Below are positions 1 through 31,744 of a DNA stretch of 31,744 nucleotides, piece by piece. Every line of letters begins with the position of its first letter. Position 1 is the first letter of the stretch. Source of the DNA: Spirochaetota bacterium (GTDB lineage: Bacteria > Spirochaetota > UBA4802 > JAFGDQ01); contig JAZDKB010000034.1 in the NCBI GenBank assembly GCA_043803405.1, positions 1 to 31,744 on the forward strand. The letters are read 5' to 3'. The notes beneath the pieces were generated by a model that saw nothing but the letters and a program-made list of their open reading frames with translations, made no database searches and was not told the DNA's origin. The position numbers were made by a program, and so were the translations under genes.

Positions 1-132
1 TTTAATACGTTCTCACTTATCCTTCTATCCATAAAGGCTGCCTCCTTTGTTTTTTAACTTCGCAACTTAAAACTCTTAAAGAAGGTGGCCTTTATCCTTA
101 TTTTGTCAACTCACTACTAACATAGTAAACCC
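1..132 (-). mobile_element. Left end of a putative insertion sequence (reads outward, truncated by the contig end), including the first codons of a probable transposase (ATG at 32, MDRRISENVL...)
   Basis: 1-141 is the exact reverse complement of 31604-31744. It contains TTGACA, an RBS-sequestering hairpin, AGGAGG and an ATG opening a frame that runs off the edge. Family not determinable from 10 codons; inner boundary uncertain by a few nt. Confidence 0.65.
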
Positions 133-212
133 TCTCTGCTTCGCAAAGAGGGGGAATTGTGATATTTTTCTCCCCTTCTCTTTTTAAAGAGAAGGGGCCG
201 GGGGGATGAGTT
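130..212. repeat. REP-like double-hairpin intergenic repeat abutting the IS end
   Basis: Hairpins CCCTCTCTGC-TTC-GCAAAGAGGG (130-152) and CCCCTTCTCTTT-TT-AAAGAGAAGGGG (172-197), then GGGGGATGAGTT. A diverged inverted copy lies at 31494-31615. Confidence 0.8.
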
Positions 213-17305: not shown

Positions 17306-18319
17306 TTATCTGTGTTCATCTGCGTTCATCTGAGGTAAATTTCCTGCGAAGTGACAGGACACCAGATGATCTTCTTCTCCGGGTTTATTATACTTTTCTA
17401 GCACAGGGATCACATTTTTGCAAATATCTTTTGCGTACCGGCACCTGGTGTGAAAAGTACATCCGGAAGGCGGGTTCACCGGAGAAGGCACATCTCCATG
17501 CAGCACTATTCTTTGTCCTTTGTATAGCGGATCTGGCCTAGGGATCGCGGATATGAGCGCCATTGTGTACGGATGCATGGGGTTACTGTATATTGTATCG
17601 GCATCGGCAAGCTCCGCTATTTTTCCCAGATACATTACAGCGATCCTGTCAGATACGTGCTTCACAACAGTAAGGTCGTGCGAAATAAAAACGTATGTCA
17701 GGTCCAGCTCGCTCTGAAGTTCCAGGAGGAGATTCAGTATTTGCGACTGAATGGATACATCGAGAGCTGAAACCGGCTCGTCGCAGATGATCAGCTTAGG
17801 GTTAAGAGCGATCGCGCGCGCAATACCTATCCTCTGCCGCTGGCCGCCGGAGAATTCATGAGGATACCGGGTGAGGGCGCTTTCCGGAAGCCCGACCTTC
17901 GCCAGGAGGCGCAATGCCTTTTCTTTTCTCTCATCCGCGGTTCCGATTTTATGTATGATAAAAGGCTCTTCGATTATATATCCTACAGTATGTCTTGAAT
18001 TAAGAGATTCAAACGGATCCTGAAAGATGATCTGCATATCACGTCTGGCTGCGCGCAGATCCTTCGGCTTTAAGTGAGATATGTTTTTGTTCTCGAAATG
18101 AACCTCCCCGTGGGTCAGGTTGTAGAGCTTAAGGATCGCCCTGCCGACCGTAGTTTTTCCGCACCCGGACTCGCCAACAAGCCCGATTGTTTCACCGCGC
18201 TTAACATTGAACGAGACACCGTCCACTGCCTTTACAGTATTGATCTGCTTGTAAAAAATTCCGCCCTTTACCGGGAAGTGCATTTTAAGGTCTTTGACCA
18301 GCAACAGGTAATTATTCAT
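17306..18319 (-). CDS. oppF: Oligopeptide/dipeptide ABC transporter ATP-binding subunit (OppF/DppF type)
   Basis: [31 protein letters not shown]-terminal oligo-HPY domain with Cys motif. Confidence 0.92.
17308..17337. repeat. Three degenerate 10-bp tandem units ATCTG(T/C)GTTC forming the 3' end of the oppF-like gene
   Basis: atctgtgttc atctgcgttc atctgaggta; on the minus strand it encodes the terminal PQMNADEHR. Confidence 0.7.
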
Positions 18320-18384
18320 TTTTTTGTTTGATGTTTGCTCAATTTGTTTTTTCCAAAATAGCTATGTTTAGCAATAAACTAATG

Positions 18385-19380
18385 TCATCCGGCTGCGTTC
18401 AATCTGAAACAGCTCGCGTAATGCTCTTCAGAGATATACACTTCTTCAGGAGATTCACTAATGCATCTTTCGAAAGCCTCGGGGCACCTGTTCCGGAAGC
18501 GGCAGCCTTTCGGATATTCCGATATGGCAGGCACAATGCCGCTGATCGTCGCGAGTTTGCTTTTGCGTTCGGTGTCCAGTCTGGGTATTGACGCGAACAG
18601 GCCTTTTGTGTACGGGTGCGCGGGCTCGTAAAAAAGCTTTTGCACAGGGGCGCGCTCCACGATCTTGCCCGCATACATTACAAGCACGTCGTCGCATATC
18701 TGCGCTATTACGCCGAGATTATGCGTAATGAATATCATGGACATGCCGGATTCTTTCTGCAGCTCTTTGATGAGCTCAAGTATCTGCGCCTGTATTGTTA
18801 CATCGAGAGCTGTAGTAGGCTCGTCCGCGATCAGAATAGCGGGCTTAAGGCTCAGTGCCATCGCGATCATTACCCGCTGCCTCATCCCGCCCGATAGCTG
18901 ATGCGGGTATTCGTTTATCTTTTGTTCCGGGTCGGATATCCCGGCTTTCTTTAACAGATCAATGCTTTCTTTTAAAATATCGCTTTTGCTCATACCGGGA
19001 TTATGCAGCAAAAATGTTTCCGCCATCTGCTTGCCGATTGAATGAACGGGATTAAGCGCAGTCATCGGCTCCTGAAATATCATGGAGATATTGTTGCCGC
19101 GAATGCTGTGAAGCTCATCAGGCGACAGTTTAAGGATATCCTTATCTTTAAATAAAATCTCTCCTTTGAGATACTGTCCCGACGGCTTCGGCAACAGCCG
19201 CATTACGGAAAGCGCTGTTACGGTTTTTCCGCAGCCCGATTCGCCAACAATGCCAAGGGTAGCGTTCGGCCGCAGCTTAAAGCTAACGCCGTCAACCGCG
19301 CGCAAAAGACCTGCCTCGGTCCGGAATGCTGCGACAAGGTCTTTTACTTCAAGGATGGCTCCGGTTTGTGATTGTGACAA
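18385..19380 (-). CDS. oppD: Oligopeptide/dipeptide ABC transporter ATP-binding subunit (OppD/DppD type)
   Basis: [52 protein letters not shown] start with GGAG RBS. Confidence 0.92.
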   Translation of the reverse strand: MSQSQTGAILEVKDLVAAFRTEAGLLRAVDGVSFKLRPNATLGIVGESGCGKTVTALSVMRLLPKPSGQYLKGEILFKDKDILKLSPDELHSIRGNNISMIFQEPMTALNPVHSIGKQMAETFLLHNPGMSKSDILKESIDLLKKAGISDPEQKINEYPHQLSGGMRQRVMIAMALSLKPAILIADEPTTALDVTIQAQILELIKELQKESGMSMIFITHNLGVIAQICDDVLVMYAGKIVERAPVQKLFYEPAHPYTKGLFASIPRLDTERKSKLATISGIVPAISEYPKGCRFRNRCPEAFERCISESPEEVYISEEHYASCFRLNAAG

Positions 19381-19401
19381 AAGTGTCTCCGTCGATAATG
19401 A

Positions 19402-19722
19402 TTAAGCTGCTACCTGTATTCCTTCTCTATGAGCAATTTCGACAATTACACTGCTGTTGTTGGCTATCCATTCTTTTTCTCCGCAGGCTATCGGCTCAAT
19501 TCTGCTGTCTATTCGTGCAGCTGTTTTCCACAAAAGTCCAATATCTTCCAGTTTTTTTTGATTGTCAAAAGTCGGAGAGACAACGATCAGGTCTAAATCG
19601 CTCATGGAATTATTTGTATCCTTGGCAAAGGAACCGTAAATAACGGCAAACAATACCGGAATACCCTTACATCGCAATGACTCAATGTATTTCTGTATGA
19701 TTATAATTGTTGAATTATCCAT
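19402..19722 (-). CDS. Minimal nucleotidyltransferase (MNT) domain protein, putative antitoxin
   Basis: Exact GS-X10-DXD motif (GSFAKDTNNSMSDLD); 106 aa; overlaps the HEPN gene. Confidence 0.9.
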   Translation of the reverse strand: MDNSTIIIIQKYIESLRCKGIPVLFAVIYGSFAKDTNNSMSDLDLIVVSPTFDNQKKLEDIGLLWKTAARIDSRIEPIACGEKEWIANNSSVIVEIAHREGIQVAA

Positions 19723-20078
19723 AGACGTACTTCCTTTGCTTTGTTTAAATATGATTTTGCAGTTTGAATATCAGGAGACTGTATTCTTGAATCAGGGTAT
19801 CTCCCTTCGATATTGAAAGCATTCATTTCTGCAAGTATATCAAGTTGAGAATCATTTGGATTTATATCAGCGATTTCACAAAGCCTGACTAAGTTGTGTA
19901 TTCTCGGTGGAATATCGTTAGTTTTTTTACATATCAGCGCTTTAAGCAATTTCTCAAGGGATAAATGAATAAAGAAAAGTCCATGGCGGATTTTGTAATT
20001 ATCAATTAAATTACTCGCGACATCCCAATCTTCATCAGAACTTTGATGCCAGTATTGTATTTGTTTTTCTATATCCAT
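19701..20078 (-). CDS. HEPN domain protein (partner of the MNT)
   Basis: FFIHLSLEKLLKA, PPRIHNL..L, EGRYPD motifs of the stand-alone HEPN family. Confidence 0.9.
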   Translation of the reverse strand: MDIEKQIQYWHQSSDEDWDVASNLIDNYKIRHGLFFIHLSLEKLLKALICKKTNDIPPRIHNLVRLCEIADINPNDSQLDILAEMNAFNIEGRYPDSRIQSPDIQTAKSYLNKAKEVRLWIIQQL

Positions 20079-20092
20079 AATTTATTTTTTAT

Positions 20093-20629
20093 TTAATTAG
20101 TCTTATAAAAGTCTTCCGGTATGATGTCCATTAATATAATATTATGAACCTGAAGGTTTCGTATAAGCGCTTTTCTTCTTTCGCCTATCTTTTTAAAACC
20201 AATTTTTTCGTAACAGTTAATCCCTTTTTCATTGGCAGAATATACGCGAAGCATTATATTGAACAGGTTTAAATATTTGAATGCATAATTCAGAAGTAAA
20301 TGCAGCGCTTCCGATCCATAACCTCTGTTCCAGAAGTTTTTGTCTCCTATTATAATTCCGATTTCCGCTGTCTGGTTTATATGATCGATGTCGAGCAGCC
20401 CACAGCTTCCGATCAATTGATTAGTCAGCTTATCTATAATGCTGTAGTTATGCTCTTTACAGAGCGAAGAAAGTATTCCCTTCTCGCTTTCAATTGAAAG
20501 AGATTGAGGTGCCAGCTTGGTATATAAAGTCACCTCAAGATCATTGAGCCACACGGCAAATCTTTCCGCGTCGTTTATATCCATTGGGGAAAGATAACAT
20601 TTCTCACCGATTAATTTTTTAATATGCAT
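20093..20629 (-). CDS. RimJ/RimL-family GNAT N-acetyltransferase
   Basis: AEIGIIIGDKNFWNRGYGSEAL (acetyl-CoA binding), N..GINCYEKIGF. Confidence 0.92.
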   Translation of the reverse strand: MHIKKLIGEKCYLSPMDINDAERFAVWLNDLEVTLYTKLAPQSLSIESEKGILSSLCKEHNYSIIDKLTNQLIGSCGLLDIDHINQTAEIGIIIGDKNFWNRGYGSEALHLLLNYAFKYLNLFNIMLRVYSANEKGINCYEKIGFKKIGERRKALIRNLQVHNIILMDIIPEDFYKTN

Positions 20630-20699
20630 AGTACCTTTTTAATTATCTTTTTTGGATAATATTTTACATATTATAATAGTTCTGTTTTATCTGAAAATA

Positions 20700-22565
20700 T
20701 CATCTGCTTTTATACGTCGTATCAATTATCGTCACAGGCGTAAACGCTCTCCCGGATTTCATTGCCTTTAACGTATCTTCTTTTTCCTTCTCGTCTATCC
20801 AGAAAAGGCCGCCGTATTTGCTTTCCCACGGCTCATATTCCTCGAACAATGATGTAGATGTTTTTGTTCCAGGGATATTCGGGAAATGAATCCATCGCCA
20901 GTATAAATGCCTCACATAAGGAACCTGGTACAACGGTATCCATGCACACATATCATGTATCTTTTGCTGTATAATATGGCTTAACCTGATTTTTCCCGCA
21001 GTGCTTTTCGATTTGTCGTATGTATCAATGAGCCTGTCCATTTCCTTATCGTCAGTATTCGTTATATTGTTCGTCTGCGGTTTATGCGCGTTTGCGGAAT
21101 GGAACGACTGCCACGGATCCGGACGCAGGTTGGGGCTGCTGAATCCTGTAAACGCGATCTCGTGTTTCTTCTCCATTTCTTTTTTGTAAGCAGCGCTCGG
21201 GTCGAGCAATTCGAGTTTTAGCTCAATGCCGGCTTTCTTTGCTTCTTCCTTCAGAAAGATCATGCGCGATGTGTGTTCATCAACACCGTATGTGACTGTT
21301 ACAGAATATCTTTCCCCGTTCTTTGCCCATATACCGTCCGCTCCTCTTTTCCATCCGGATTTCTGCATGTAAAGTTCACTTTTTTTAATATCAAACTCTC
21401 TTGCCCTGATATTCCTGTTTGTCCATTCCCCGTAACCGGTATCGAAATTATGAAGACGCTTGTAATCGCCTCTTAGTATTTGCGCATTAAGTTTATCAAA
21501 ATTAATTGCATGGGCAAGCGCATAGCGCAGGTTAATATCCTTAAAGATCGGTTTATCCAGGTTCAGGTAAAGCCCTACAGTTGGCTGCTTTACATCATTA
21601 TAAAACCATATCCTGTGAACATAGCCTTTATTGTATATTTCCCCTTTCGCCTTTTCATGCCATATCGTCGGCAGAGTAGCACCAAAAGCGTCTAGCTGGG
21701 CTTTTTTAAAATATTCGTATTCCACATTCATATCTCTTACTACCGTATATTTTATCTTATCAACGTTGTAACGGTTCCTGTAGTATCTTAAATCCTTTGC
21801 CCACCAGTCTTTTTTCCTTTCAAAGATCAGGTGCTTGCCTTTGGAGTAATCGGTTAGGATATAAGGCCCGGTGTTCGGTTCAATTGCCCAGTTGTAATCT
21901 TTAACAAAGTCTTTAGTAAGTTTTTTGTAAAAATGTTTCGGCCTTGGCTGCATTTCCAGATGGAACCAGAGGTCCGGGTACGCTTCAGGTGAGGAGATGG
22001 AAATTGTTTTATCGTCGTATTTTATTATTTTATCAAAATGCCTTATAAAATTATCGTTGTGCCATGGGTCGCGGATATATTTTGAACGCATAAATTCAAG
22101 CGTGAATATAAAGTCATCCGCAGTAACAGGGACGCCGTCTGACCAGGCAGCGTTTTTATGTATTCTGAAATACATTGTTTTGCCGCTGTCGTCATAAGCC
22201 CAGTGGCTCGCTAAAACCGGAATGAGCCTGTGTGTGTTCGGATGAAGCCCAACAAGAAGCAGGTTGTTGTCGCCGAAAAGCGATCTGGTGCCCGAGTTCG
22301 CGTCCGGCCCTATAGTTCTGAATGTCAGCGGAAAGCTGCGTATCGCGAAATTCATTGTCCCGCCTTTCTTTGCATTCAGCGACGCGAACGTCGGATCGGT
22401 CTCATTGGTCGTCCACCTTATATTTTTCGGCAGCTCGTGAGCGCTGTAATCAAGCGGCGCTGCCTCTTTCAAATCAGCCTCGTTCTCTCCCTCATCAGTG
22501 CCGCCGCACATCAGGTTTGATATAAGGAACAGCGCAAATATTACCGGATATATTTTTTTTTTCAT
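20700..22565 (-). CDS. ABC transporter family-5 solute-binding lipoprotein, YejA-like
   Basis: Lipobox-like Cys; AKKGG, WSDGVPVTADD, GPY...ERKKDWWAKDL...RYNVDKI...RD..V..EYFK, a YejA-type pattern. Confidence 0.9.
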   Translation of the reverse strand: MKKKIYPVIFALFLISNLMCGGTDEGENEADLKEAAPLDYSAHELPKNIRWTTNETDPTFASLNAKKGGTMNFAIRSFPLTFRTIGPDANSGTRSLFGDNNLLLVGLHPNTHRLIPVLASHWAYDDSGKTMYFRIHKNAAWSDGVPVTADDFIFTLEFMRSKYIRDPWHNDNFIRHFDKIIKYDDKTISISSPEAYPDLWFHLEMQPRPKHFYKKLTKDFVKDYNWAIEPNTGPYILTDYSKGKHLIFERKKDWWAKDLRYYRNRYNVDKIKYTVVRDMNVEYEYFKKAQLDAFGATLPTIWHEKAKGEIYNKGYVHRIWFYNDVKQPTVGLYLNLDKPIFKDINLRYALAHAINFDKLNAQILRGDYKRLHNFDTGYGEWTNRNIRAREFDIKKSELYMQKSGWKRGADGIWAKNGERYSVTVTYGVDEHTSRMIFLKEEAKKAGIELKLELLDPSAAYKKEMEKKHEIAFTGFSSPNLRPDPWQSFHSANAHKPQTNNITNTDDKEMDRLIDTYDKSKSTAGKIRLSHIIQQKIHDMCAWIPLYQVPYVRHLYWRWIHFPNIPGTKTSTSLFEEYEPWESKYGGLFWIDEKEKEDTLKAMKSGRAFTPVTIIDTTYKSR

Positions 22566-22757
22566 CGTAATACTCCTTAAAAGTCCACTATTTATTTAGA
22601 TTAGATTATTATCAGGCAGAACATAAATGCTGTAGTCAAGCTCGATTTGGATTCTTCAGCGGTTCCGGATTCATTACCCAGCTTAGCATAATTTAAGGAA
22701 CTCTGATTATAAAGAGATATAAAACAGAAATAACTATATTAATTAAATTTCTCTTAA

Positions 22758-23132
22758 TTAAAATAATTTTAAATTTTGTAAAATTTCAGCAATTTTAATA
22801 AAATGTGTGTCATTAGTCATGATAGGAATATTTTTATTTATACATAGTGTAGCCAGTACTGCATCCTGAAATGGAATAGTAAGCCCTTGTGTTTTTAATT
22901 TATTCAAATTATTACCGACATCTTGCCAAATATCATCGTCTATGCTTAACCACTGAAGTTCTTTGATTGCTTCAGTAATATCAACCTTATCTTTTTCGGT
23001 TCTGGCTCCATGAATCAATTCGGATAAAATAATTCCGCAGGTAGCGATATCATCTTTATCTATTAGGTTTTCGAAATCCGACCTTTTGTTTTTTAAATAA
23101 TCGATTATTATATTCGTATCTGCAAGTATCAT
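22758..23132 (-). CDS. vapC: PIN-domain VapC-like toxin
   Basis: ILADTNIIID, SELIHG, PFQDAVLA, TNDTHF acidic PIN residues. Confidence 0.9.
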   Translation of the reverse strand: MILADTNIIIDYLKNKRSDFENLIDKDDIATCGIILSELIHGARTEKDKVDITEAIKELQWLSIDDDIWQDVGNNLNKLKTQGLTIPFQDAVLATLCINKNIPIMTNDTHFIKIAEILQNLKLF

Positions 23133-23344
23133 ATCAAACTTTTATTCCTTAAAGAAAGAATTGAATCTTCATCAAGATTTATCTTTCCCTTTAGATTCTT
23201 TAGTTTTTTATCCTTTTCTTTTATGTTCTTTTCAGGTAAATCTTCTATTAATATTATTTCCATTCTTTTACCGATAAATTTGGACAGCGCCGGGATTTTT
23301 ATAGTGTCTGATTCAATAGTAATATTAAATTTTAATGCTTCCAT
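23129..23344 (-). CDS. Putative VapB-like antitoxin
   Basis: 71 aa, directly upstream of the PIN gene with a 4-nt ATGA overlap; GAGGTG RBS. Confidence 0.75.
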   Translation of the reverse strand: MEALKFNITIESDTIKIPALSKFIGKRMEIILIEDLPEKNIKEKDKKLKNLKGKINLDEDSILSLRNKSLI

Positions 23345-23392
23345 TTAAACACCTCTAATCGAATTCTAGTTTAAAAGAGATCAATAAATATA

Positions 23393-23407
23393 ATATTTGT
23401 CAAATAT
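23393..23407. promoter_or_regulatory. Palindrome ATATTTG-T-CAAATAT containing a minus-strand TTGACA; candidate vapBC operator or promoter
   Basis: Perfect 7-bp arms about 50 nt upstream of the antitoxin start. AT-rich, so chance is possible. Confidence 0.3.
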
Positions 23408-23439
23408 ATTCGGTAAATTTTATATTAACATCAAATATT

Positions 23440-24492
23440 TTATTCATAAGTCGTATGCATCTTCGGATCGAACGCCTCTCTTATGGCCTCGCCTATAAAC
23501 GTAACCATTGTTAATACCAGTATCAGCGCTGTAATAATGGAAACGCCTATCCACCACGCGCTGGTGGTAAATTCGGACGCTTCGCTTAAAAGCTGCCCCC
23601 AGCTTGGCGTCGGTGCCGGCAGCCCGAATCCGAGATAGTCGAGCGCAGTAAGGGCAGTTATGCCGCCGGCGATTGAAAAAGGAATAAACGTCACTATTAT
23701 TGAAATCGTATTCGGTATTATATGCTTAAATATTATCCGCGTATTGCGTGCGCCCAAAGCTCTCGCAGCAAGCACATATTCTCTTTCTTTCTCCTTGTAA
23801 GTAGCAGTCCTCATATACCATGTCATGCCTATCCAGTCAAAGATTACCATTATAATTAAAAGAGAAAAGAAGCTCGGAATTATTATGGACGAAATTATTA
23901 TAATAGCATAAAGATACGGGATGTTGGTCCATATCTCTATTATGCGCTGAAAGAACAGATCGAATTTGCCGCCCAGAAAGCCCATAAGGCATCCGATAGA
24001 AATTCCTATCAGGTAATTTGAGCATAACAGAATCAAAGAGAAAAATATTGCTATTCTGAAACCGTATATAAGTCTTGCGGCAATGTCGCGTCCGGTTTTG
24101 TCCGTGCCCAGAAAATGCCGGTCTTCCATTGAAGGAGCAAACGGAGGAAAGCTGTTATCTTTTAGGTCATTCTCAAACGCGTTATATGGTACAGGAGGCA
24201 GTATCACATAGTTACTGTTCTCCGGCGTTCTGCCGAAGGTTCCGGCAAGCTCCCTGTAATTGGTTTCGTATTCGTAATCGAGTCCGAATACCTTTCCCGG
24301 TATAATATCGCCATAAGTCGGGAAATAATAACTACCGTTGTATTTAATGAGCAGCGCCCTGTTGCTCACTATCAGTTCTGCAAATATCGAAATTAAAATA
24401 AGAAGACAAAAAATAATGAAGGATATATATCCTCTTTTTATTCTTTTAAATCTGCGTATCTGCTTTATTGTTAAAGGATTTAGATTGAACAT
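23440..24492 (-). CDS. ABC transporter permease, YejE/OppC-like
   Basis: LNPLT...RRFKRIKRGYIS, HFLGTDKTGRDIAARLIYGFR, EAA-like EYVLAARALGA, PTPSWG. ATG at 24492 preferred over 24522. Confidence 0.92.
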   Translation of the reverse strand: MFNLNPLTIKQIRRFKRIKRGYISFIIFCLLILISIFAELIVSNRALLIKYNGSYYFPTYGDIIPGKVFGLDYEYETNYRELAGTFGRTPENSNYVILPPVPYNAFENDLKDNSFPPFAPSMEDRHFLGTDKTGRDIAARLIYGFRIAIFFSLILLCSNYLIGISIGCLMGFLGGKFDLFFQRIIEIWTNIPYLYAIIIISSIIIPSFFSLLIIMVIFDWIGMTWYMRTATYKEKEREYVLAARALGARNTRIIFKHIIPNTISIIVTFIPFSIAGGITALTALDYLGFGLPAPTPSWGQLLSEASEFTTSAWWIGVSIITALILVLTMVTFIGEAIREAFDPKMHTTYE

Positions 24493-24505
24493 GATATTAT
24501 TTATT

Positions 24506-25522
24506 TTACTTAAACTGAACACGCGGATCGACTATCGCCACGCATACATCAGATAATATATTTCCTATCATGAATAATAATGATGATATTACAAGTATTC
24601 CCATTACAACCGGATAGTCCCTTTCTATTACAGATTCAAGCCCAAGGAGTCCCATGCCGTCTATATTGAATATTTTTTCAACAAGGTATGATCCCATCAG
24701 GATCATTGAAATATTATTCCCGAAATTTGTCGCTAGCGGAATAAGGCTGTTCCTGAAAGCGTGTTTAAAAACTGCTTTTTTAAAAGGAAGGCCTTTTGCT
24801 ATCGCAGTCCTCATGAAGTCGGAAGCAAGGTGATCCATGAGAGAATTTTTCATTATGAATGTCATTACGGCAAAGCTGCCTGCCATATACGAAATTAACG
24901 GAAGAATAGCGTGATAGATGAGGTCGCCTATCTTGCCGGCAAAACTTAAACTGTTAAAGTCGTCTCCTGTAAATCCGCCAAGCGGAAAAATATCCAGCCA
25001 CGAAGAGAAAGTAATAAGAAGAATGATCGCGACAACATAGTTCGGGATCGCGTATCCTATGAACACTATTATGGAAGTCGTATTGTCTATTGCGGTTCTG
25101 TGCTTAATTGCTTTTAACACGCCGAGGGGAATGCAGACCGAATATCCCAGAATCAATGCAAAGATGCCGTAGAACAAAGAAACCGGCAGTTTGCTTTTTA
25201 TAATGTCCCATACCGGCTCGTAATAACGCGTCGAATTACCCAGGTCGAATTGAAGCACTTTTCCGAGCCATAAAAAATAGCTCACGAGAACGGGTTTGTC
25301 GAAGCCGTAATATCTTTTCAGTTCGTTAAGCTGATCTTCGGAAAGCGGCGCCTGACTTACTCTGTGCGATCCGGGCATGGAAGCAGCGGCCTGCTGAGCC
25401 TGCGCAAGCATCCTTTCAATAGGGCCGCCTGGTACAAAGCGCGTTATAGTGAATACCATTAAAGATATTCCGAGGAATGTAGGAATTATCAATAACAGCC
25501 TTCTGATAAAATATGATTTCAT
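24506..25522 (-). CDS. ABC transporter permease, YejB/OppB-like
   Basis: YFIRRLLLIIPTFLGI...VPGGPIE, YGFDKP, TAIAKGL, HAFRNS, RDYPVVMG, VDPRV. Confidence 0.93.
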   Translation of the reverse strand: MKSYFIRRLLLIIPTFLGISLMVFTITRFVPGGPIERMLAQAQQAAASMPGSHRVSQAPLSEDQLNELKRYYGFDKPVLVSYFLWLGKVLQFDLGNSTRYYEPVWDIIKSKLPVSLFYGIFALILGYSVCIPLGVLKAIKHRTAIDNTTSIIVFIGYAIPNYVVAIILLITFSSWLDIFPLGGFTGDDFNSLSFAGKIGDLIYHAILPLISYMAGSFAVMTFIMKNSLMDHLASDFMRTAIAKGLPFKKAVFKHAFRNSLIPLATNFGNNISMILMGSYLVEKIFNIDGMGLLGLESVIERDYPVVMGILVISSLLFMIGNILSDVCVAIVDPRVQFK

Positions 25523-25787: not shown

Positions 25788-27011
25788 ATGACAACAGAAA
25801 GACTTAAAATAGACCTGAGTTATCTTGGACCGGAAAGTATATTGATCTATCCGTTATATACTGAAAAAGGCGAAAAGATACTGGAAGCGAGAACTGCACT
25901 CTCAGTAGATATAATCAATAATATTATTCAGAGGCATGGTAAGGTAGTTTATTACTCCTTTGCCGATGAAATGGGGAACATACCGAACCACAGAATTTTC
26001 AGTGCATTGCATAAATCGCGCGAAATAATGGATGACATAATCCATACCGACAAAATCAGCAAAGCCAGGTACCGGGAGTCCGAAGAGCTCGTTGAGCTGA
26101 TGTTAAACGATCTTGTTTCATCTGAGACCGACACGATCAAGCTCCTTAAGGACTTGAATTCTTATGATGATTATACTTATAATCATTCCGTAAATGTACT
26201 GCTTCTTGCAGCAGTATTCGCCAACAAAATGAAAAAATACTCTATGGATGAGATGAAATCCCTGATGCTTGGCGCTTTCCTTCACGATATCGGTAAAATG
26301 AAGCTGGATAAACAGCTATTAAACAAGAAAGGAAAGCTTGATGTTTCCGAATTTCAAAAGATGAAAAGGCATCCTCAGCTTGGCTATGAAATAATAAAAG
26401 GCATTGCCGGATCGGATACGATAGTTCAGCAGTGTATTCTGTTCCATCATGAAAAATTTAATAATAAAGGATATTACGGGCTGCCTTATGAACATTTGCC
26501 TACATATCCTAAAATAATTGCCATTTGCGATGTTTTTGATGCTTTGACTTCCCGAAGGCCTTACAGGAGCGCAGCTTCCCCGGCAATTGCGCTAAAGACT
26601 TTGTTAAACTCTATCAATAATCATTTTGATTATGATCTGGTTGATAAATTTATAAATATGCTTGGGCCTTTTGTAAATAATACAAGACACTTTTACGGAA
26701 AGCACGAAATTTGCGAACTTAACACACAGGAACTTGCGCTTATAGTCGGACTGGGCGAAAAGGATATTTTAAAGCCTGACGTTTTTGTTTTCTGCAAATA
26801 TCAGAAAACAAAAAATAAAATAAACGTAAAATTTTACGAGAAGCCATTCAAGGTGAATCTGCAAAATGATGAACACAGGTTTATGATGAATGTTTTAAGC
26901 AATGAGTATCAGGTATATTCACTTAAGAACAGACTACTTGAAAAGACTCTTTTAAAAATGGAAGCGATGGGGCCTGTTACATTTAATTTTGAATCAAAAA
27001 CGATTAATTAG
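25788..27011 (+). CDS. HD-GYP-like cyclic-dinucleotide phosphodiesterase (GYY variant)
   Basis: DDYTYNHS, LHDIGK, HPQLG, HHEKFNNKGYY, DVFDALTSRRPYR. Confidence 0.9.
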   Translation: MTTERLKIDLSYLGPESILIYPLYTEKGEKILEARTALSVDIINNIIQRHGKVVYYSFADEMGNIPNHRIFSALHKSREIMDDIIHTDKISKARYRESEELVELMLNDLVSSETDTIKLLKDLNSYDDYTYNHSVNVLLLAAVFANKMKKYSMDEMKSLMLGAFLHDIGKMKLDKQLLNKKGKLDVSEFQKMKRHPQLGYEIIKGIAGSDTIVQQCILFHHEKFNNKGYYGLPYEHLPTYPKIIAICDVFDALTSRRPYRSAASPAIALKTLLNSINNHFDYDLVDKFINMLGPFVNNTRHFYGKHEICELNTQELALIVGLGEKDILKPDVFVFCKYQKTKNKINVKFYEKPFKVNLQNDEHRFMMNVLSNEYQVYSLKNRLLEKTLLKMEAMGPVTFNFESKTIN

Positions 27012-27136
27012 TTCTTAATTGAGTTGATATTTTATTTATTATAAAAAAATTCCTTGACAAGCAATTTATTTATAGTTTTTATATCATCAACAAATATAAT
27101 ACAAAGTAAAAAATAATAAATTAAGATAATTAAAAA

Positions 27137-27193
27137 ATGACCAACTTTCAAACCATGGCCTTCACCTTTAGTAACTTTAAATTTACAGGATGA
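27137..27193 (+). CDS. Phe-rich attenuator leader peptide MTNFQTMAFTFSNFKFTG
   Basis: 18 codons with 5 Phe, followed by mutually exclusive hairpins and a U-tailed terminator. Too short for the ORF track; no strong Shine-Dalgarno. Confidence 0.7.
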   Translation: MTNFQTMAFTFSNFKFTG

Positions 27194-27244
27194 AGACTGC
27201 TCATGGAATGAAGAGATTCTTAAGTCGAAAACAAACCGTGGGCA
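27153..27244 (+). promoter_or_regulatory. Attenuator protector (1:2) and antiterminator (2:3) helices
   Basis: 1:2 = CCATG..CTTCA.CCT..GTAA (27153-27174) with TTAC.AGG.TGAAG..CATGG (27183-27206). 2:3 = TGCTCATGG (27198-27206) with CCGTGGGCA (27236-27244), 9 bp including 2 G-U. Confidence 0.7.
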
Positions 27245-27262
27245 AAAACCCACGGTTTTTTT
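27233..27262 (+). terminator. Intrinsic terminator (attenuator 3:4 hairpin)
   Basis: AAACCGTGGG-CAAAAA-CCCACGGTTT, with a run of 7 T at 27256-27262; about 80 nt upstream of the dehydratase start. Confidence 0.85.
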
Positions 27263-27278
27263 GTTTTAGGGCACAACA

Positions 27279-27305
27279 CAGGGGCTTGCCCCTGGGAATT
27301 TTATT
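27279..27305. repeat. CAGGGGCTTGCCCCTG palindrome; second copy of the 283-307 repeat
   Basis: 24/25 identity with 283-307. Confidence 0.6.
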
Positions 27306-27342
27306 ATAGTTTTAAAAAATACAAATACAATTGGGGGAAAGT

Positions 27343-28590
27343 ATGTCTTTGGAGAAAAAAGCAGTAAGAAAAAAAATTAAAACCGCCGAAGCCATGGGCA
27401 AATATATGGCTGCTTATTATTATGAACTTGATAGTGCTTCAAAGAAAGGAGATAAAAAAATAGCATGGTGCACAAGCGTTGGGCCTGCCGAATTATTAAG
27501 GGCAATGGGTTTTCTGATTTACTTCCCTGAAACGCACGCTGCAATGCTGGGAAGTACGCGAATGTCGACTGATTATATTCCCTATGCTACGGCTCTGGGA
27601 TATTCTCCCGATGTCTGCTCATATATGACATCGGATATCGGGGCATTTACTCAGGGTGTAACACCGCTGTCTAAAGCATTTCCCGGTATAACAAGCATTC
27701 CCAAACCGGATGTTCTTGTTTTTAATACGAATCAGTGCAGGGATGTTCAGGACTGGTTCGAGTGGTATGCAAGGAAATATAAAGTTCCGGTTATGGGGGT
27801 AAGCGGAAACAGGAGCGTTATAGACAGCAAGGAAAGTATTGTAACATCGATGAAAAAACAGATCGAGGAGCTGGTTGATCCTCTCGAAAAGATTTCCGGA
27901 AATAAATTCGATATTGATAAATTAAAGGATGCAGTCGGGCTTTCACGCAAATGTTCCGACCTCTGGAAAGAGACGCTTGAATCGGCCTCTGCTGTTCCCG
28001 GGCCTTTGACTTTCTTTGACGGCTGCACTCTTATGGGCCCGGCTGTTGTCGGCAGGGGCACTCAGGCTGCTGTCGATATTTACACCGATCTGCTTAACGA
28101 GATGAAAGAGAGAATAAAAAACAAGGAGGGCGCTATTCCGGAGGAGAAATTCCGTCTTTACTGGGATGGCATGCCGGTATGGGGAAGGCTGGGCGCGCAT
28201 TCCCAGATGTTCGCTGAATTAAAAGCGAATGTTCTTGCTTCCACTTACTGCAGCAGCTGGATATTCACTGCTCTTGAAGCTGCCGATCCGTTCAGGAGCA
28301 TGGCACAGGCGTACACTGACTTGTTTATTGTCCGCTCCGATGAATACAAAGAACAGTATGTTAAAGATAAAATAGATTTGTATAAGGTTGACGGCATAAT
28401 TTATCATGACTCAAAGACATGCCCTAATAATACAAATTGCCGTTATGGTTTATCCAAACGCATAGAAGAAAGAACCGGCTTGCCGGGTCTTACTATTTAT
28501 GGCGATCTGAACGATCTAAGATGTCTTTCGGATGAACAGACAAAGACGAATGTAGAAGCATTTATTGAGCAGCTCGCGGAAAATAAATAA
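27343..28590 (+). CDS. 2-hydroxyacyl-CoA dehydratase family subunit (HgdA/FldB/HadB/BcrB-like, HGD-D domain)
   Basis: IAWCTSVGPAELLRAMG..FPE, GYSPDVCSY, PKPDVL...NQC, FRLYWDG.P.W, VDGIIYH...C, GDLND. ATG at 27343 has a GGGGG RBS (track start 27331). Confidence 0.9.
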   Translation: MSLEKKAVRKKIKTAEAMGKYMAAYYYELDSASKKGDKKIAWCTSVGPAELLRAMGFLIYFPETHAAMLGSTRMSTDYIPYATALGYSPDVCSYMTSDIGAFTQGVTPLSKAFPGITSIPKPDVLVFNTNQCRDVQDWFEWYARKYKVPVMGVSGNRSVIDSKESIVTSMKKQIEELVDPLEKISGNKFDIDKLKDAVGLSRKCSDLWKETLESASAVPGPLTFFDGCTLMGPAVVGRGTQAAVDIYTDLLNEMKERIKNKEGAIPEEKFRLYWDGMPVWGRLGAHSQMFAELKANVLASTYCSSWIFTALEAADPFRSMAQAYTDLFIVRSDEYKEQYVKDKIDLYKVDGIIYHDSKTCPNNTNCRYGLSKRIEERTGLPGLTIYGDLNDLRCLSDEQTKTNVEAFIEQLAENK

Positions 28591-28613
28591 ATAATAATAA
28601 CCGGTAAAATCCT

Positions 28614-29996
28614 ATGGCGCTTACAAAAAACATAATTAATGATCTGAAAAAATTAGCAGGGGAGGGCGGCGTTTTAAGTGCAGAGGCCGACCTGGCCGCG
28701 TACTCCTATGACGGGACAACTAACTGGCAGTCGATGCCGGAAGCAGTTGTGTTCACGGCCACTGCTGAGCAAATATCCGGCATAATGAAGCTGGCAAGCG
28801 CGAATACGATACCTGTAACAATGCGCGGAGCAGGCACGTGCCTCAGCGGAGGGCCTGTGCCTGTTGCGGGCGGGATTGTCATCTGCACAACGCGCATGAA
28901 CAGGATCATTGAGATCGATAAAGAAAATTTTACCGTGACTGCCGAAGCCGGCGTTGTTTTGAACAATATGAATCTGGAGCTTGCTAAAAACAAACTCTTT
29001 TTCCCGCCCGATCCGCAGAGCTTTCTGGCAGCAACAATAGGCGGCTGCGTTTCCGAAGGCGCCGGCGGCCCGTACGCAGTAAAGTACGGCGTATTCAAGC
29101 ATTATATACTCGGCATGACTGTTGTACTGGTCAACGGCACGGTCATGAATCTGGGCGGGAACACTGTGAAGAACGTGACAGGCTACGATCTTCCGCAGCT
29201 GATATGCGGCTCCGAGGGCACTTTGTGCGCCGTAACGCAGGTGAAGCTTCGGGTGCTGCCGCGTCCTGAGGCTGTGCAGACTATCATGGCTGTATTCAAC
29301 GATGTTACTGATTCAGGGCGCGCTGTGCACCTGGTGCGGTCGAGCGGGGTTATCCCTGCAAAGATCGAGATGATAGACAACTGGGTGATACGCCGCATTG
29401 AAGAAGCAATGCCGATGAACCTGCCTTTGACTGCGGATGCGATTCTTCTGTTTGAGCTTAACGGCACACGCGAGACCATTGCAAAGGAAAACGATTTAGT
29501 CGTAAAGCTGTGTAAAGAAGCAGGGGCAGTGGATGTACGGCCTGCCAGGGATGCAAAGGATTCGGACAATCTATGGGCTGCGCGTAGGGCAGGCTTCTCA
29601 ATGATTTACGGAGCAGCAGCGACTGTTATGGCTGAGGATGTTGTTGTACCCACAAGCAAAATACCTGAATTTATTGACCGGATCAAGCAGATACGAAAGA
29701 AATATGATGTAACAACAGTAATAATAGGCCATGCGGGGGACGGGAACCTGCATCCTTCTGTGCTCACGGATAAAAAAGACGCGGAACATTACGCGAGGTC
29801 CGAAAAGGCTGTTGAGGAGATATTTAAAACAGCGCTGGAACTTGGTGGGGCGATATCCGGCGAGCACGGCATAGGACTTGAGAAAAAGAGATTTTTGAAG
29901 CAGGCGATATCTCGGGAAGAAATTACGCTCCTGAAAGAAATAAAGAAAGTCTTTGATCCTAAGGGCATACTGAACCCGGGCAAGATATGGGAGTAA
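28614..29996 (+). CDS. glcD: FAD-linked 2-hydroxy-acid oxidoreductase, GlcD/D-lactate dehydrogenase family
   Basis: RGAGTCLSGG, PPDPQS, TIGG, KYG, VKNVTGYDL, GSEGTL, HAGDGNLH, ISGEHGIG, FDPKGILNPGK. Symbol reflects the family; substrate unknown. Confidence 0.88.
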   Translation: MALTKNIINDLKKLAGEGGVLSAEADLAAYSYDGTTNWQSMPEAVVFTATAEQISGIMKLASANTIPVTMRGAGTCLSGGPVPVAGGIVICTTRMNRIIEIDKENFTVTAEAGVVLNNMNLELAKNKLFFPPDPQSFLAATIGGCVSEGAGGPYAVKYGVFKHYILGMTVVLVNGTVMNLGGNTVKNVTGYDLPQLICGSEGTLCAVTQVKLRVLPRPEAVQTIMAVFNDVTDSGRAVHLVRSSGVIPAKIEMIDNWVIRRIEEAMPMNLPLTADAILLFELNGTRETIAKENDLVVKLCKEAGAVDVRPARDAKDSDNLWAARRAGFSMIYGAAATVMAEDVVVPTSKIPEFIDRIKQIRKKYDVTTVIIGHAGDGNLHPSVLTDKKDAEHYARSEKAVEEIFKTALELGGAISGEHGIGLEKKRFLKQAISREEITLLKEIKKVFDPKGILNPGKIWE

Positions 29997-30043
29997 AAAT
30001 AGAAATAAGAACATTAATGAGAGTTAGCGAAGTGTTCGGCTTG

Positions 30044-30157
30044 TCAGTTAAATGTAATTATCATCAATTTTAAGGCGGCAGGATGCCGCCGCAAGCCGCT
30101 TCTTACAGGAAGTAAGCATTAGCGGCGAGAAAATTGATGATAATTACATTTAACTGA
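30044..30157. repeat. 114-bp palindromic (MITE/REP-like) element with perfect 28-bp terminal inverted repeats and two internal GC hairpins
   Basis: TCAGTTAAATGTAATTATCATCAATTTT (30044-30071) and its exact reverse complement (30130-30157). Confidence 0.85.
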
Positions 30158-30204
30158 ATAATCTTTATTACTGGTTAATTTTATTAACATGCGGAGACTG
30201 TGAA

Positions 30205-31440
30205 ATGGCATATCCTATATTAAAAGACTCAACGGATGCTTGCATGAAATGCGGTTTCTGCATGTCCAACTGCCCTGTGTACAATATCGACAAGCTGGAA
30301 GCGCATGTTGCGCGTGGCCGCAACATGCTTATACAGCTTGCTGAAAACAAAAAAATCGTTCCGGATAATTATTATAAATCCATTTTGTATTATTGTCTTT
30401 TGTGCGGCCGGTGCGAGGCAATGTGCCCTGCAAAGGTATTGTCCAATACTATAACCTTAAAGGCAAGGAAAGAGCTGATAAAGCAGACCGGGCTGTCGCT
30501 TATGCAGCGCCTTGTTTACAGGGGTTTGATAAAGCACCGTTCGTTCTTTGCGCGGCTGGGAGCTTTGGCGACGCTTGTTCCGGGACTGACTGCGAAAGAG
30601 AATCAGCCGATCCGTCATTTCCCGGATATTGTTTCAGCAGCACTGACCGGCGTATCCTTCCCAAGATTATCCGTACCGTTTTTGACGAAGCGTGTTAAAA
30701 AGAAAGCGAAGAGTGAAAGCGTGTGGCAGGCCGCAAAGATCGCGTTTTTCTCAGGCTGCCTTACCGAGTTCTTTTTCGCGAGTACAGGCACAGACATGAT
30801 TTCTATATTACAGCAGGCAGGGTACAACGTCGATCTTCCGGAGCAGACATGCTGCGGTCTTGCAGTGTACTCTGCAGGGGATTTCGATACTGCTGTTGTA
30901 ATGGCAAAACGCAACATTGATTCATTATCCGGATACGATTATATTGTCACTGGCTGCGCGAGTTGCAGTTCAACTTTGAAAGGCTACGTGAACTGGTTCG
31001 ATGAAGGAGAATATAAACAGAAGGCAGTTGAGCTTTCAAAGAAAGTGAAGGACTTTGCACAGTTTATTGTTCAGCAGGATATTAAACCGAAAGGCGTCTC
31101 GGGCAAACCATTAAAGGTTACGTATCATGATCCATGCCATCTTCGATGGAAGCAGGGCATACTTGCAGAGCCGAGGGCTGTGCTTAAAAATATTGACGGA
31201 GTCGAGTTTGTCGAGATGGAGGGCGCGGATTCGTGCTGCGGTCTTGGCGGATCGTTCGGGATTACGCACCCGGACGTTAGCAAAGCTATACAGGCAAAGA
31301 AAGTCGAAGCAATAAAAAAAAGCGGAGCGGACGTCGTTGTCACATCTTGCCCGGGCTGCATGATACAGCTAATGGACGGCCTGCGCCGCTATAAGCTGCC
31401 TGTAAAGGTAATGCATATAGCGGAACTGATGAAGAAGTAG
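30205..31440 (+). CDS. glcF: GlcF-like Fe-S subunit (2x[4Fe-4S] plus two CCG domains)
   Basis: CMKCGFCMSNCP, CLLCGRCEAMCP, FSGC, TCCG, CASC, YHDPCH, SCCG, SCPGC. Confidence 0.9.
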   Translation: MAYPILKDSTDACMKCGFCMSNCPVYNIDKLEAHVARGRNMLIQLAENKKIVPDNYYKSILYYCLLCGRCEAMCPAKVLSNTITLKARKELIKQTGLSLMQRLVYRGLIKHRSFFARLGALATLVPGLTAKENQPIRHFPDIVSAALTGVSFPRLSVPFLTKRVKKKAKSESVWQAAKIAFFSGCLTEFFFASTGTDMISILQQAGYNVDLPEQTCCGLAVYSAGDFDTAVVMAKRNIDSLSGYDYIVTGCASCSSTLKGYVNWFDEGEYKQKAVELSKKVKDFAQFIVQQDIKPKGVSGKPLKVTYHDPCHLRWKQGILAEPRAVLKNIDGVEFVEMEGADSCCGLGGSFGITHPDVSKAIQAKKVEAIKKSGADVVVTSCPGCMIQLMDGLRRYKLPVKVMHIAELMKK

Positions 31441-31493
31441 ATGTAAACTTGGCCGGATAAGCAGGACTGCCTAATTTTAAAAGTGTGGCTAAA

Positions 31494-31615
31494 AACTCAT
31501 CCCCCATCCCCTTGCGCGGAGCCTCCCTTTGGGACTCTTTAAAAAGAGAAGGGGAGAAAAACATCCAATTCCCCGTGCAAAGCCTACCATGGGACTCTTT
31601 GCAAAGCAGAGAGGG
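31494..31615. repeat. REP-like double-hairpin repeat (inverted, diverged copy of 130-212) carrying two micro-insertions
   Basis: Aligns with the reverse complement of 130-212 once 31514-31534 and 31575-31594 are removed. Confidence 0.8.
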
Positions 31616-31744
31616 TTTACTATGTTAGTAGTGAGTTGACAAAATAAGGATAAAGGCCACCTTCTTTAAGAGTTTTAAGTTGCGAAGTTAAAAAACAAAG
31701 GAGGCAGCCTTTATGGATAGAAGGATAAGTGAGAACGTATTAAA
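31613..31744 (+). mobile_element. Left end of a putative insertion sequence with the start of a probable transposase (ATG 31713, MDRRISENVL...), truncated by the contig end
   Basis: Identical to the reverse complement of 1-132. TTGACA 31636-31641, AGGAGG 31699-31704, hairpin covering RBS and start. Confidence 0.65.

Follow-up and report, generated by a model that had tools for sequence, protein, structure and literature searches.

Why should genes for a 2-hydroxyacyl-coenzyme A (CoA) dehydratase subunit and a GlcD/GlcF-type dehydrogenase, at one end of a contig from a Spirochaetota bacterium, stand behind a phenylalanine-rich leader peptide and an attenuator? The contig (JAZDKB010000034.1 of assembly GCA_043803405.1; C34 in our numbering, 31,744 bases) was analysed in its entirety and is called the window here; its genome, G000, comprises 3.98 Mb and is 94% complete, and its other contigs are named C13, C45 and so on. 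Of the named relatives of its proteins, the closest are labelled Spirochaetes. Our preferred answer, to which we give a probability of roughly 60%, is that the genes form an operon for Phe/Tyr supply in which the 3-aryl-lactate pathway runs in reverse, from (hydroxy)cinnamoyl-CoA through aryl-lactate and aryl-pyruvate to the amino acids. All parts come from known families, and what would be new is the direction, the set of partners, the lack of a detected beta subunit and the aromatic attenuation; 2-hydroxyacyl-CoA dehydratases are, to our knowledge, known as fermentative, dehydrating enzymes. No account of the module or its regulation was found in the literature covered, which excluded most subscription journals. 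Judged from sequence, the regulation appears well supported and the chemistry is a well-constrained proposal.

The three co-oriented genes follow a leader open reading frame (ORF; translation MTNFQTMAFTFSNFKFTG), a pairing segment and an intrinsic terminator (Table 1). The leader with its five Phe among 18 codons, the terminator and the domain matches of the ORFs thus confirm the layout given in a preliminary description of the locus. The leader ranked first in Phe content among the 146 terminator-bearing short ORFs in a genome-wide scan of 3612 gene-upstream short ORFs, and the probability of at least five Phe in 17 codons was 0.001 at the coding frequency and 0.015 at an assumed AT-rich frequency of 9%. 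The leader ORF itself contains a segment able to pair with segment 2: as modelled, a ribosome at the leader stop blocks the antiterminator and the terminator forms, and a ribosome stalled at Phe/Tyr codons leaves the antiterminator free.

Table 1. Positions in the window of the operon, its leader and adjoining features.
Feature	Position	Strand	Remarks
Possible -35 box TTGACA	27054..27059	+	weak; no convincing -10 at canonical spacing; absent from promoter-scan list
Leader peptide ORF, 18 codons	27137..27193	+	5 Phe, at codons 4, 9, 11, 14, 16
Attenuator segment 2, antiterminator 5' arm	27199..27206	+	starts 5 nucleotides (nt) past leader stop
Intrinsic terminator (segments 3:4, 10 pairs) and U tract	27233..27266	+	hairpin 27233-27258
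Segment 3, also antiterminator 3' arm	27236-27243	+	
Alpha-type 2-hydroxyacyl-CoA dehydratase family protein, 415 amino acids (aa), PF06050	27343..28590	+	subfamily without neighbouring beta subunit
Flavin adenine dinucleotide (FAD)-linked D-2-hydroxyacid dehydrogenase (GlcD/LctD/LDHD type), PF01565 and PF02913	28614..29996	+	
Palindromic intergenic repeat	30037..30164	.	about 24 loci in genome; between GlcD and GlcF
GlcF-like Fe-S subunit, two 4Fe-4S motifs (Fer4) and two CCG domains	30205..31440	+	
Insertion sequence (IS) end at contig break	31610..31744	+	C45 end reads into same IS

Orthologues of the dehydratase gene (72-78% identity) were sought in 61 relatives and found in G001 and G002, of the same genus, and G005 and G006, of the same family. 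The same RNA element precedes the orthologue in three of these four (G001, G002 and G006), and TTGACA also occurs 5' of the G001 and G002 leaders. A second leader (9 Tyr and 1 Phe) lies in G001 between the first and second genes, before those for the thioesterase, activator and CoA ligase. Across leaders the antiterminator and the U-tailed terminator are mutually exclusive and conserved; the spacing from leader stop to segment 2 is 5 nt in all five leaders, and in a ribosome-position model with an assumed 10-nt leading footprint the antiterminator probability was 1.00 while the ribosome stood at the regulatory codons and 0.00-0.05 once it had reached the stop, again in five of five. The terminator was paired in 50 of 50 cells, one pair being changed on both sides in two of the five sequences. 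This layout is biosynthetic in the model, such that the genes should be on under aromatic amino acid starvation, and the starvation-on logic put forward in the preliminary description is strengthened by its conserved geometry. The signal itself needed correction: Phe is indeed prominent in the G000 leader, but the leaders of the relatives are rich in Tyr or in both (5 Tyr and 2 Phe in G001, 7 Tyr and 3 Phe in G002, 9 Tyr in G006), and because Tyr dominates there we rejected a Phe-only signal. Going by these codons, the sensed signal is Tyr/Phe, that is, aromatic, and one attenuator scaffold would have been re-tuned between Tyr and Phe.

Leader-peptide attenuators of this kind include pheL/pheA and pheM/pheST, which share with the present element a short leader rich in cognate codons, alternative 2:3 and 3:4 hairpins and a U tract. 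Here, in contrast, Rfam gives no match, Tyr, Phe or mixed leaders occur on one RNA scaffold, and a radical-enzyme module is controlled, the pheA of G000 lacking such a leader. No Rfam attenuator model matched within 26900-31744; a riboswitch or other Rfam-family reading was therefore dropped, the TwoAYGGAY-like match falling on the intergenic repeat at 38.9 bits against a threshold of 43 bits. A leader scan over 185 loci (2.13 Mb) returned 26 candidates, four of them family leaders, and three further candidates were examined and rejected. The attenuator motif was found at 24 places in 19 of 122 genomes of the order, five of these places being family leaders. Elsewhere in G000, a Val-rich leader and a strong terminator precede a biosynthetic acetolactate synthase gene (L327, C6:14800-16693), which indicates that G000 makes use of classical attenuation.

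The first gene of the operon was assigned to the dehydratases by sequence and fold. Its best solved relative was the HadB alpha subunit (E 3e-48), followed by MbdO (5e-30) and BzdO (4e-22), and its predicted structure (predicted local distance difference test score 91) had a template modelling (TM) score of 0.87 to HadB alpha (3O3M). Residues S45, E63, C92, C132 and C360 are invariant in 49 aligned dehydratase sequences, and we take the roles of these Ser, Glu and three Cys residues to be those in the HadBC structure; fold, cluster cysteines and active-site Ser/Glu of a HadBC/FldBC alpha subunit are thus all found. The conserved Glu of dehydratases also appears in the accessible text of PMC5897657. 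Model scores were below cut-off throughout (HadB, 223 against 750; BcrB, 155.6 against 486.55; BzdO, 83.8 against 448.6). Class I benzoyl-CoA reductases (BcrBC, BzdNO, MbdON) have a homologous fold, but that label was rejected, since the scores are below cut-off, a second catalytic subunit and a second ATPase type are absent and there is no bcr context; a grouping with these enzymes, which the preliminary description had named, together with a bcr context, as a danger to its proposal, is likewise disfavoured by HadB alpha scoring best.

It is distinctly unlikely that the radical enzyme has a non-aromatic substrate or carries out other chemistry, for instance a reductive or dehydroxylating step on an aromatic CoA ester that connects the Tyr skeleton with that of Phe. 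By sequence the best match is clearly HadB alpha, a single activator type accompanies the dehydratase, and the genes around relatives at 61-70% identity (PaaK, IorAB, a PanE-like reductase, ligases and beta-oxidation genes) are in keeping with phenyllactyl-CoA chemistry; the D-2-hydroxyacid dehydrogenase partner, moreover, implies a 2-hydroxyacid. What speaks for other chemistry is an identity to HadB of only 27%, a fold nearly as close to MbdO (TM 0.85-0.86) and the lack of a detected beta subunit. The other two PF06050 genes of G000 encode double-cubane proteins in a separate cluster with its own ATPase, and are for that reason unlikely to provide the missing subunit; none of the 160 related loci described below has a second subunit either. 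One G000 locus (L013, C15:16685-29373) combines two double-cubane proteins, an ATPase, a MetNIQ-like transporter and a radical S-adenosylmethionine protein with NifH, two nitrogenase-like subunits and a class V aminotransferase, in likeness to a sulfur-scavenging nitrogenase-like system.

With FldABC and FldI of Clostridium sporogenes and with HadBC and HadI (3O3M), the module shares the alpha fold, the Ser, Glu and three Cys residues, an activator of the acetate and sugar kinase/Hsc70/actin (ASKHA) type and the proposed substrate pair. It differs in that no beta subunit was found, a starvation attenuator is present and the proposed direction is reversed; moreover, a thioesterase and a flavin/Fe-S dehydrogenase stand where those systems have a class III CoA-transferase and an NADH-dependent reductase. 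A search of the five family operons and the three Desulfobacterales loci found no class III CoA-transferase (FldA/HadA). The available portion of PMC13416013 only restates FldABC and a hypothetical route from phenylpyruvate to benzoyl-CoA. The subfamily is large, with 7055 of 8000 scored candidates at E<=1e-100, and in a quick tree (Shimodaira-Hasegawa-like approximate likelihood ratio support only) the five family dehydratases fell into a 56-row subclade (support 99) with deltaproteobacterial proteins, separate from the 11 included proteins from ligase/reductase loci. A second dehydratase type, 33-38% identical and accompanied by a second PF06050 subunit, is widespread in the order's other families (L134-L142) and frequently occurs together with a CoA ligase and an IclR regulator.

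The gene neighbourhoods bear on direction. The operon reads dehydratase-hydrolase-activator in G002, the same with an AMP ligase in G001, dehydratase-hydrolase-GlcD-GlcF up to the contig end in G005, and contains all five genes in G006; among these four relatives the hydrolase is directly 3' of the dehydratase in every case, GlcD/GlcF are present in two and the activator in three. A search of a Desulfobacterales-centred order sample of 401 genomes with subclade member P0027 gave eight matches, of which the three closest all lie in loci reading hydrolase-GlcD-GlcF-activator-dehydratase (the G580 activator appears interrupted), and three of the other five were fetched, all of ligase type. In G693 only, a co-oriented pyrogallol-transhydroxylase-like molybdoenzyme pair lies just 5' of the five-gene module (L306:15612-19506). 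Among the 122 genomes of the order the hydrolase was found in none but the five of the family that have the dehydratase orthologue.

The sister loci, sampled as the best 80 of 446 plus the best 80 of 464 confirmed matches (n=160, many loci being short), contain a different set of partners: an activator in 132, a PanE-like reductase in 114, an AMP-forming ligase in 107, an ADP-forming ligase in 101, PaaK in 59 and IorA in 58, with no hydrolase or GlcD in any of the 160 and one distant GlcF. They belong mostly to Desulfobacterales where named, and some contain thiolase and benzoyl-CoA pathway genes. A conserved arrangement recurs in L019-L098 and L163-L242 (iorAB-paaK-panE-like-activator-dehydratase without beta-ADP-forming ligase-AMP ligase-thiolase, some with 3-hydroxyacyl-CoA dehydrogenase and Had). 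From their content we infer that these loci would convert phenylacetate or phenylpyruvate via phenyllactyl-CoA and cinnamoyl-CoA to benzoyl-CoA in strict anaerobes. Since the partners in the sister loci (ligase and reductase) serve to form the CoA ester, and those in our module (thioesterase and flavin dehydrogenase) to consume it, the hydrating direction is favoured for our operon, and this partner swap, together with the starvation switch, is the main argument that points to it. As for the partners that the preliminary description proposed to look for, the activator was found, a beta subunit was not, nor was a CoA-transferase in the family operons and Desulfobacterales loci, and a CoA ligase turned up in one family operon.

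The ordinary FldBC direction, in which aryl-pyruvate would be reduced by GlcD/GlcF, activated elsewhere and dehydrated, and cinnamate freed by the hydrolase as an electron sink or for disposal, seems to us very improbable. LctD-type enzymes are reversible in anaerobes, and the G001 operon includes a CoA ligase that could serve such a path. Dehydration is, furthermore, the favoured direction in the accessible text of PMC5897657. Under the modelled switch, however, a pathway of this kind would be active when Phe/Tyr are short and silent when they abound, thus draining the precursor, and the loci seemingly built for it use a PanE-like reductase and ligases.

The dehydrogenase of the operon was compared with characterized relatives. 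Its best solved matches were LctD (7QH2), a glycolate oxidase and mouse LDHD (8JDC), and it keeps the whole of subsite A (R324, H373, H380, E417 and H418), the five residues named in the accessible part of PMC10589216, as expected of a D-2-hydroxyacid dehydrogenase. Subsite B consists of L77, F328, V338, A340 and S382; the same part of PMC10589216 credits a Tyr at the position of V338 with the glycolate specificity of Escherichia coli GlcD and reports that mouse LDHD oxidises D-2-hydroxy-3-phenylpropionate (D-phenyllactate). None of the 119 closest homologues has Tyr at that position. This pocket of small residues is suggestive, being compatible with an aryl substrate, which it does not by itself show. 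Although the clade has the database label glycolate oxidase, that label was rejected: scores are below cut-off (GlcD, 455.9 against 567.9; GlcF, 140.4 against 333), the operon has no GlcE, and Val replaces Tyr. Compared with GlcDEF, LctD and LDHD, the FAD domain and the 2-hydroxyacid/metal site are thus fully retained and a GlcF-like partner is shared, and the differences from GlcDEF lie in the missing GlcE, the Val in place of the pocket-narrowing Tyr, and Ala340 and Ser382. The GlcF-like protein is presumed to be the electron-exit partner. The palindromic repeat between the two genes was inserted there, because they abut in G005 and G006.

In the proposed mechanism, cinnamoyl- or 4-hydroxycinnamoyl-CoA would come either from a CoA ligase or, by way of an acyl-CoA dehydrogenase, from arylpropionyl-CoA; an ATP-dependent activator would prime the 4Fe-4S dehydratase, which would add water to give (R)-aryl-lactyl-CoA. 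A PqsE-like metallo-hydrolase would then split the thioester, pulling the uphill hydration, and GlcD/GlcF would oxidise D-aryl-lactate to phenylpyruvate or 4-hydroxyphenylpyruvate, which a general aminotransferase would convert to Phe or Tyr; class I/II aminotransferases number 10-11 in each of G000, G001 and G002. Hydrolysis of a thioester releases about 30 kJ/mol (-30 kJ/mol) and could pay for the reversed dehydration. The best solved match of the hydrolase, and its closest solved relative, is PqsE, a 2-aminobenzoylacetyl-CoA thioesterase (E 2e-15 over residues 14-219), with the metal motif kept; the match is distant, the gene is absent from the window operon and the activity is a prediction. 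The idea of reversed phenyllactate chemistry, already present in the preliminary description, gains from the attenuator geometry, the thioesterase, the partner swap and the loss of pheA/tyrA, and its restriction to Phe supply falls away.

The need for such a route was assessed from pheA and tyrA. A pheA gene is kept 5' of cmk in G003, G004, G005 and G006, with tyrA in G003, G005 and G006 and with aroF in G004, and in G000, G001 and G002 scpB and cmk adjoin inside contigs, so the ancestral loss of pheA/tyrA in these three is real. Searches of G001 (90% complete) and G002 (93%) revealed neither a prephenate dehydratase nor a true TyrA, PheC-type dehydratases lying outside their scope; a weak prephenate dehydrogenase match in G001 is proC. 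Both genomes keep chorismate synthase and have mixed Tyr/Phe leaders, and both contain a stand-alone chorismate mutase of 99-104 aa (L283, L284), none being detected in G000. The suspicion that G000 lacks prephenate dehydratase proved false, as both this enzyme and prephenate dehydrogenase are present (pheA-aroF-tyrA on C13). Full-length PheA copies of the family share 56% identity among themselves, against 44-46% with the G000 PheA, and for TyrA the corresponding figures are 48-56% and 33-34%, a divergence which suggests that the set was probably reacquired. Given this divergent copy, the proposed route would be supplementary to PheA/TyrA in G000.

The same genes raise the idea that the module forms the last part of a de novo pathway bypassing prephenate dehydratase and dehydrogenase, for instance with benzoyl-CoA, 4-hydroxybenzoyl-CoA or a chorismate-derived acid extended to (hydroxy)cinnamoyl-CoA; we regard this as quite unlikely. 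It would gain from the chorismate synthase and stand-alone chorismate mutase of G001 and G002, where PDT (prephenate dehydratase) and TyrA were not found, and from a class II 3-deoxy-D-arabino-heptulosonate 7-phosphate (DAHP) synthase gene that faces the operon end in both and adjoins the activator gene in G000. None of the five family operons, however, has a thiolase, a 3-hydroxyacyl-CoA dehydrogenase or a lyase; chorismate has other uses, being required also for Trp, folate and quinones, and a PheC-type dehydratase was not among the enzymes searched. There is similarly only a small chance that a beta-less ketyl-radical hydratase, turning internally made (hydroxy)cinnamoyl-CoA to aryl-pyruvate, let the genus delete pheA/tyrA while keeping the shikimate trunk and chorismate mutase.

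Several observations weigh against a Phe/Tyr supply operon. Regarding regulation, the attenuator element was not found in the 450 bases 5' of the G005 orthologue, nor a leader at the three Desulfobacterales carrier loci; on the complete leader at equilibrium the terminator wins in every modelled state, so that the switch relies on co-transcriptional timing; and the covariation is thin, being reached by 47 of 500 shuffles, and weak alone. Regarding chemistry, the accessible text of PMC5897657 describes aryl-lactyl-CoA dehydration as reversible with the forward direction favoured, which makes the hydrolytic pull essential, and the operon hydrolase has been lost in G000; a paralogue on C27 is 52-55% identical to the operon copies and 72% to a non-operon paralogue. 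A CoA ligase lies within the operon in one of five family genomes, a PanE-like gene adjoins the G006 operon on the opposite strand, and G001 and G002 lack a GlcD orthologue, having only a 51-53% paralogue in another cluster. Regarding need, PheA and TyrA are both present in G000, G005, G006 and the three Desulfobacterales carriers, and PaaK-ACT-IorAB or CoA ligase-IorAB clusters together with peptide uptake give alternative ways to live without pheA/tyrA.

Arylacetate salvage by a CoA ligase and indolepyruvate:ferredoxin oxidoreductase (IOR) is found in methanogens and rumen bacteria, and a paaK-ACT-iorAB cluster is also present in G000. Like the proposed route, it turns environmental aromatic acids into aryl-pyruvates for Phe/Tyr, but it adds CO2 to a C6-C2 acid, whereas the proposed route would keep the C6-C3 skeleton and add water. 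The cluster with the GlcD paralogue in G001 and G002 (L276, L277) comprises a CoA ligase, GlcD/GlcF paralogues, a second CoA ligase, IorA, IorB and TetR, 5' of ispE, and is not present at the corresponding G000 position.

These points meet in a reading with the same direction and a mainly catabolic purpose, one-carbon shortening from arylacrylyl-CoA via aryl-lactate and aryl-pyruvate to arylacetyl-CoA by IOR, the attenuator being a local add-on that decays in G000. We hold it to be unlikely: four genomes keep intact leaders of fixed spacing while the sensed codon changes, G001 has duplicated the element, and repressing catabolism when Phe/Tyr are plentiful has no clear benefit. It does account for the three Desulfobacterales carriers and G005, which are leaderless and retain pheA/tyrA, for the GlcD/GlcF paralogue of G001 and G002 next to IorAB and a TetR gene, and for a G000 operon that has no hydrolase and from which IS elements split off the activator.

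The three window genes of G000 are an incomplete module, with the activator on C45 and the operon thioesterase absent. Because the activator lies across an IS break and only a paralogous thioesterase is left elsewhere, the module may be partly uncoupled in this genome. The activator orthologue (C45:51027-51803) is 84-86% identical to the operon activators of G001 and G002 and, as there, faces a class II DAHP synthase gene. The ends of C34 and C45 enter one IS, with three left flanks competing for the link, and a C34-C45 junction across it is plausible from synteny; the IS end occupies window positions 1-135 as well as the far end, and the same insertion sequence is also on C18. A homologue of the G001 operon ligase (57% identity) is encoded on C47 before tripartite ATP-independent periplasmic (TRAP) transporter genes. 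That locus (L279, C47:4206-10067) has a GntR-type regulator, an AMP-forming CoA ligase and the TRAP transporter, a candidate unit for aromatic-acid uptake and activation.

If the supply reading is true, the operon would represent a natural anabolic, hydrating use of a 2-hydroxyacyl-CoA dehydratase under biosynthetic control, and anaerobes could regain Phe/Tyr from lignin- or fermentation-derived C6-C3 acids. A large, loosely annotated dehydratase subfamily and a GlcD clade labelled as glycolate oxidase would acquire a testable function, and the auxotrophy scoring of metagenome-assembled genomes negative for pheA/tyrA would change. Elsewhere in the window, a PIN gene, a GNAT gene and a HEPN/nucleotidyltransferase pair lie inside an oligopeptide ATP-binding cassette transporter operon (17306-25522) and break it up.

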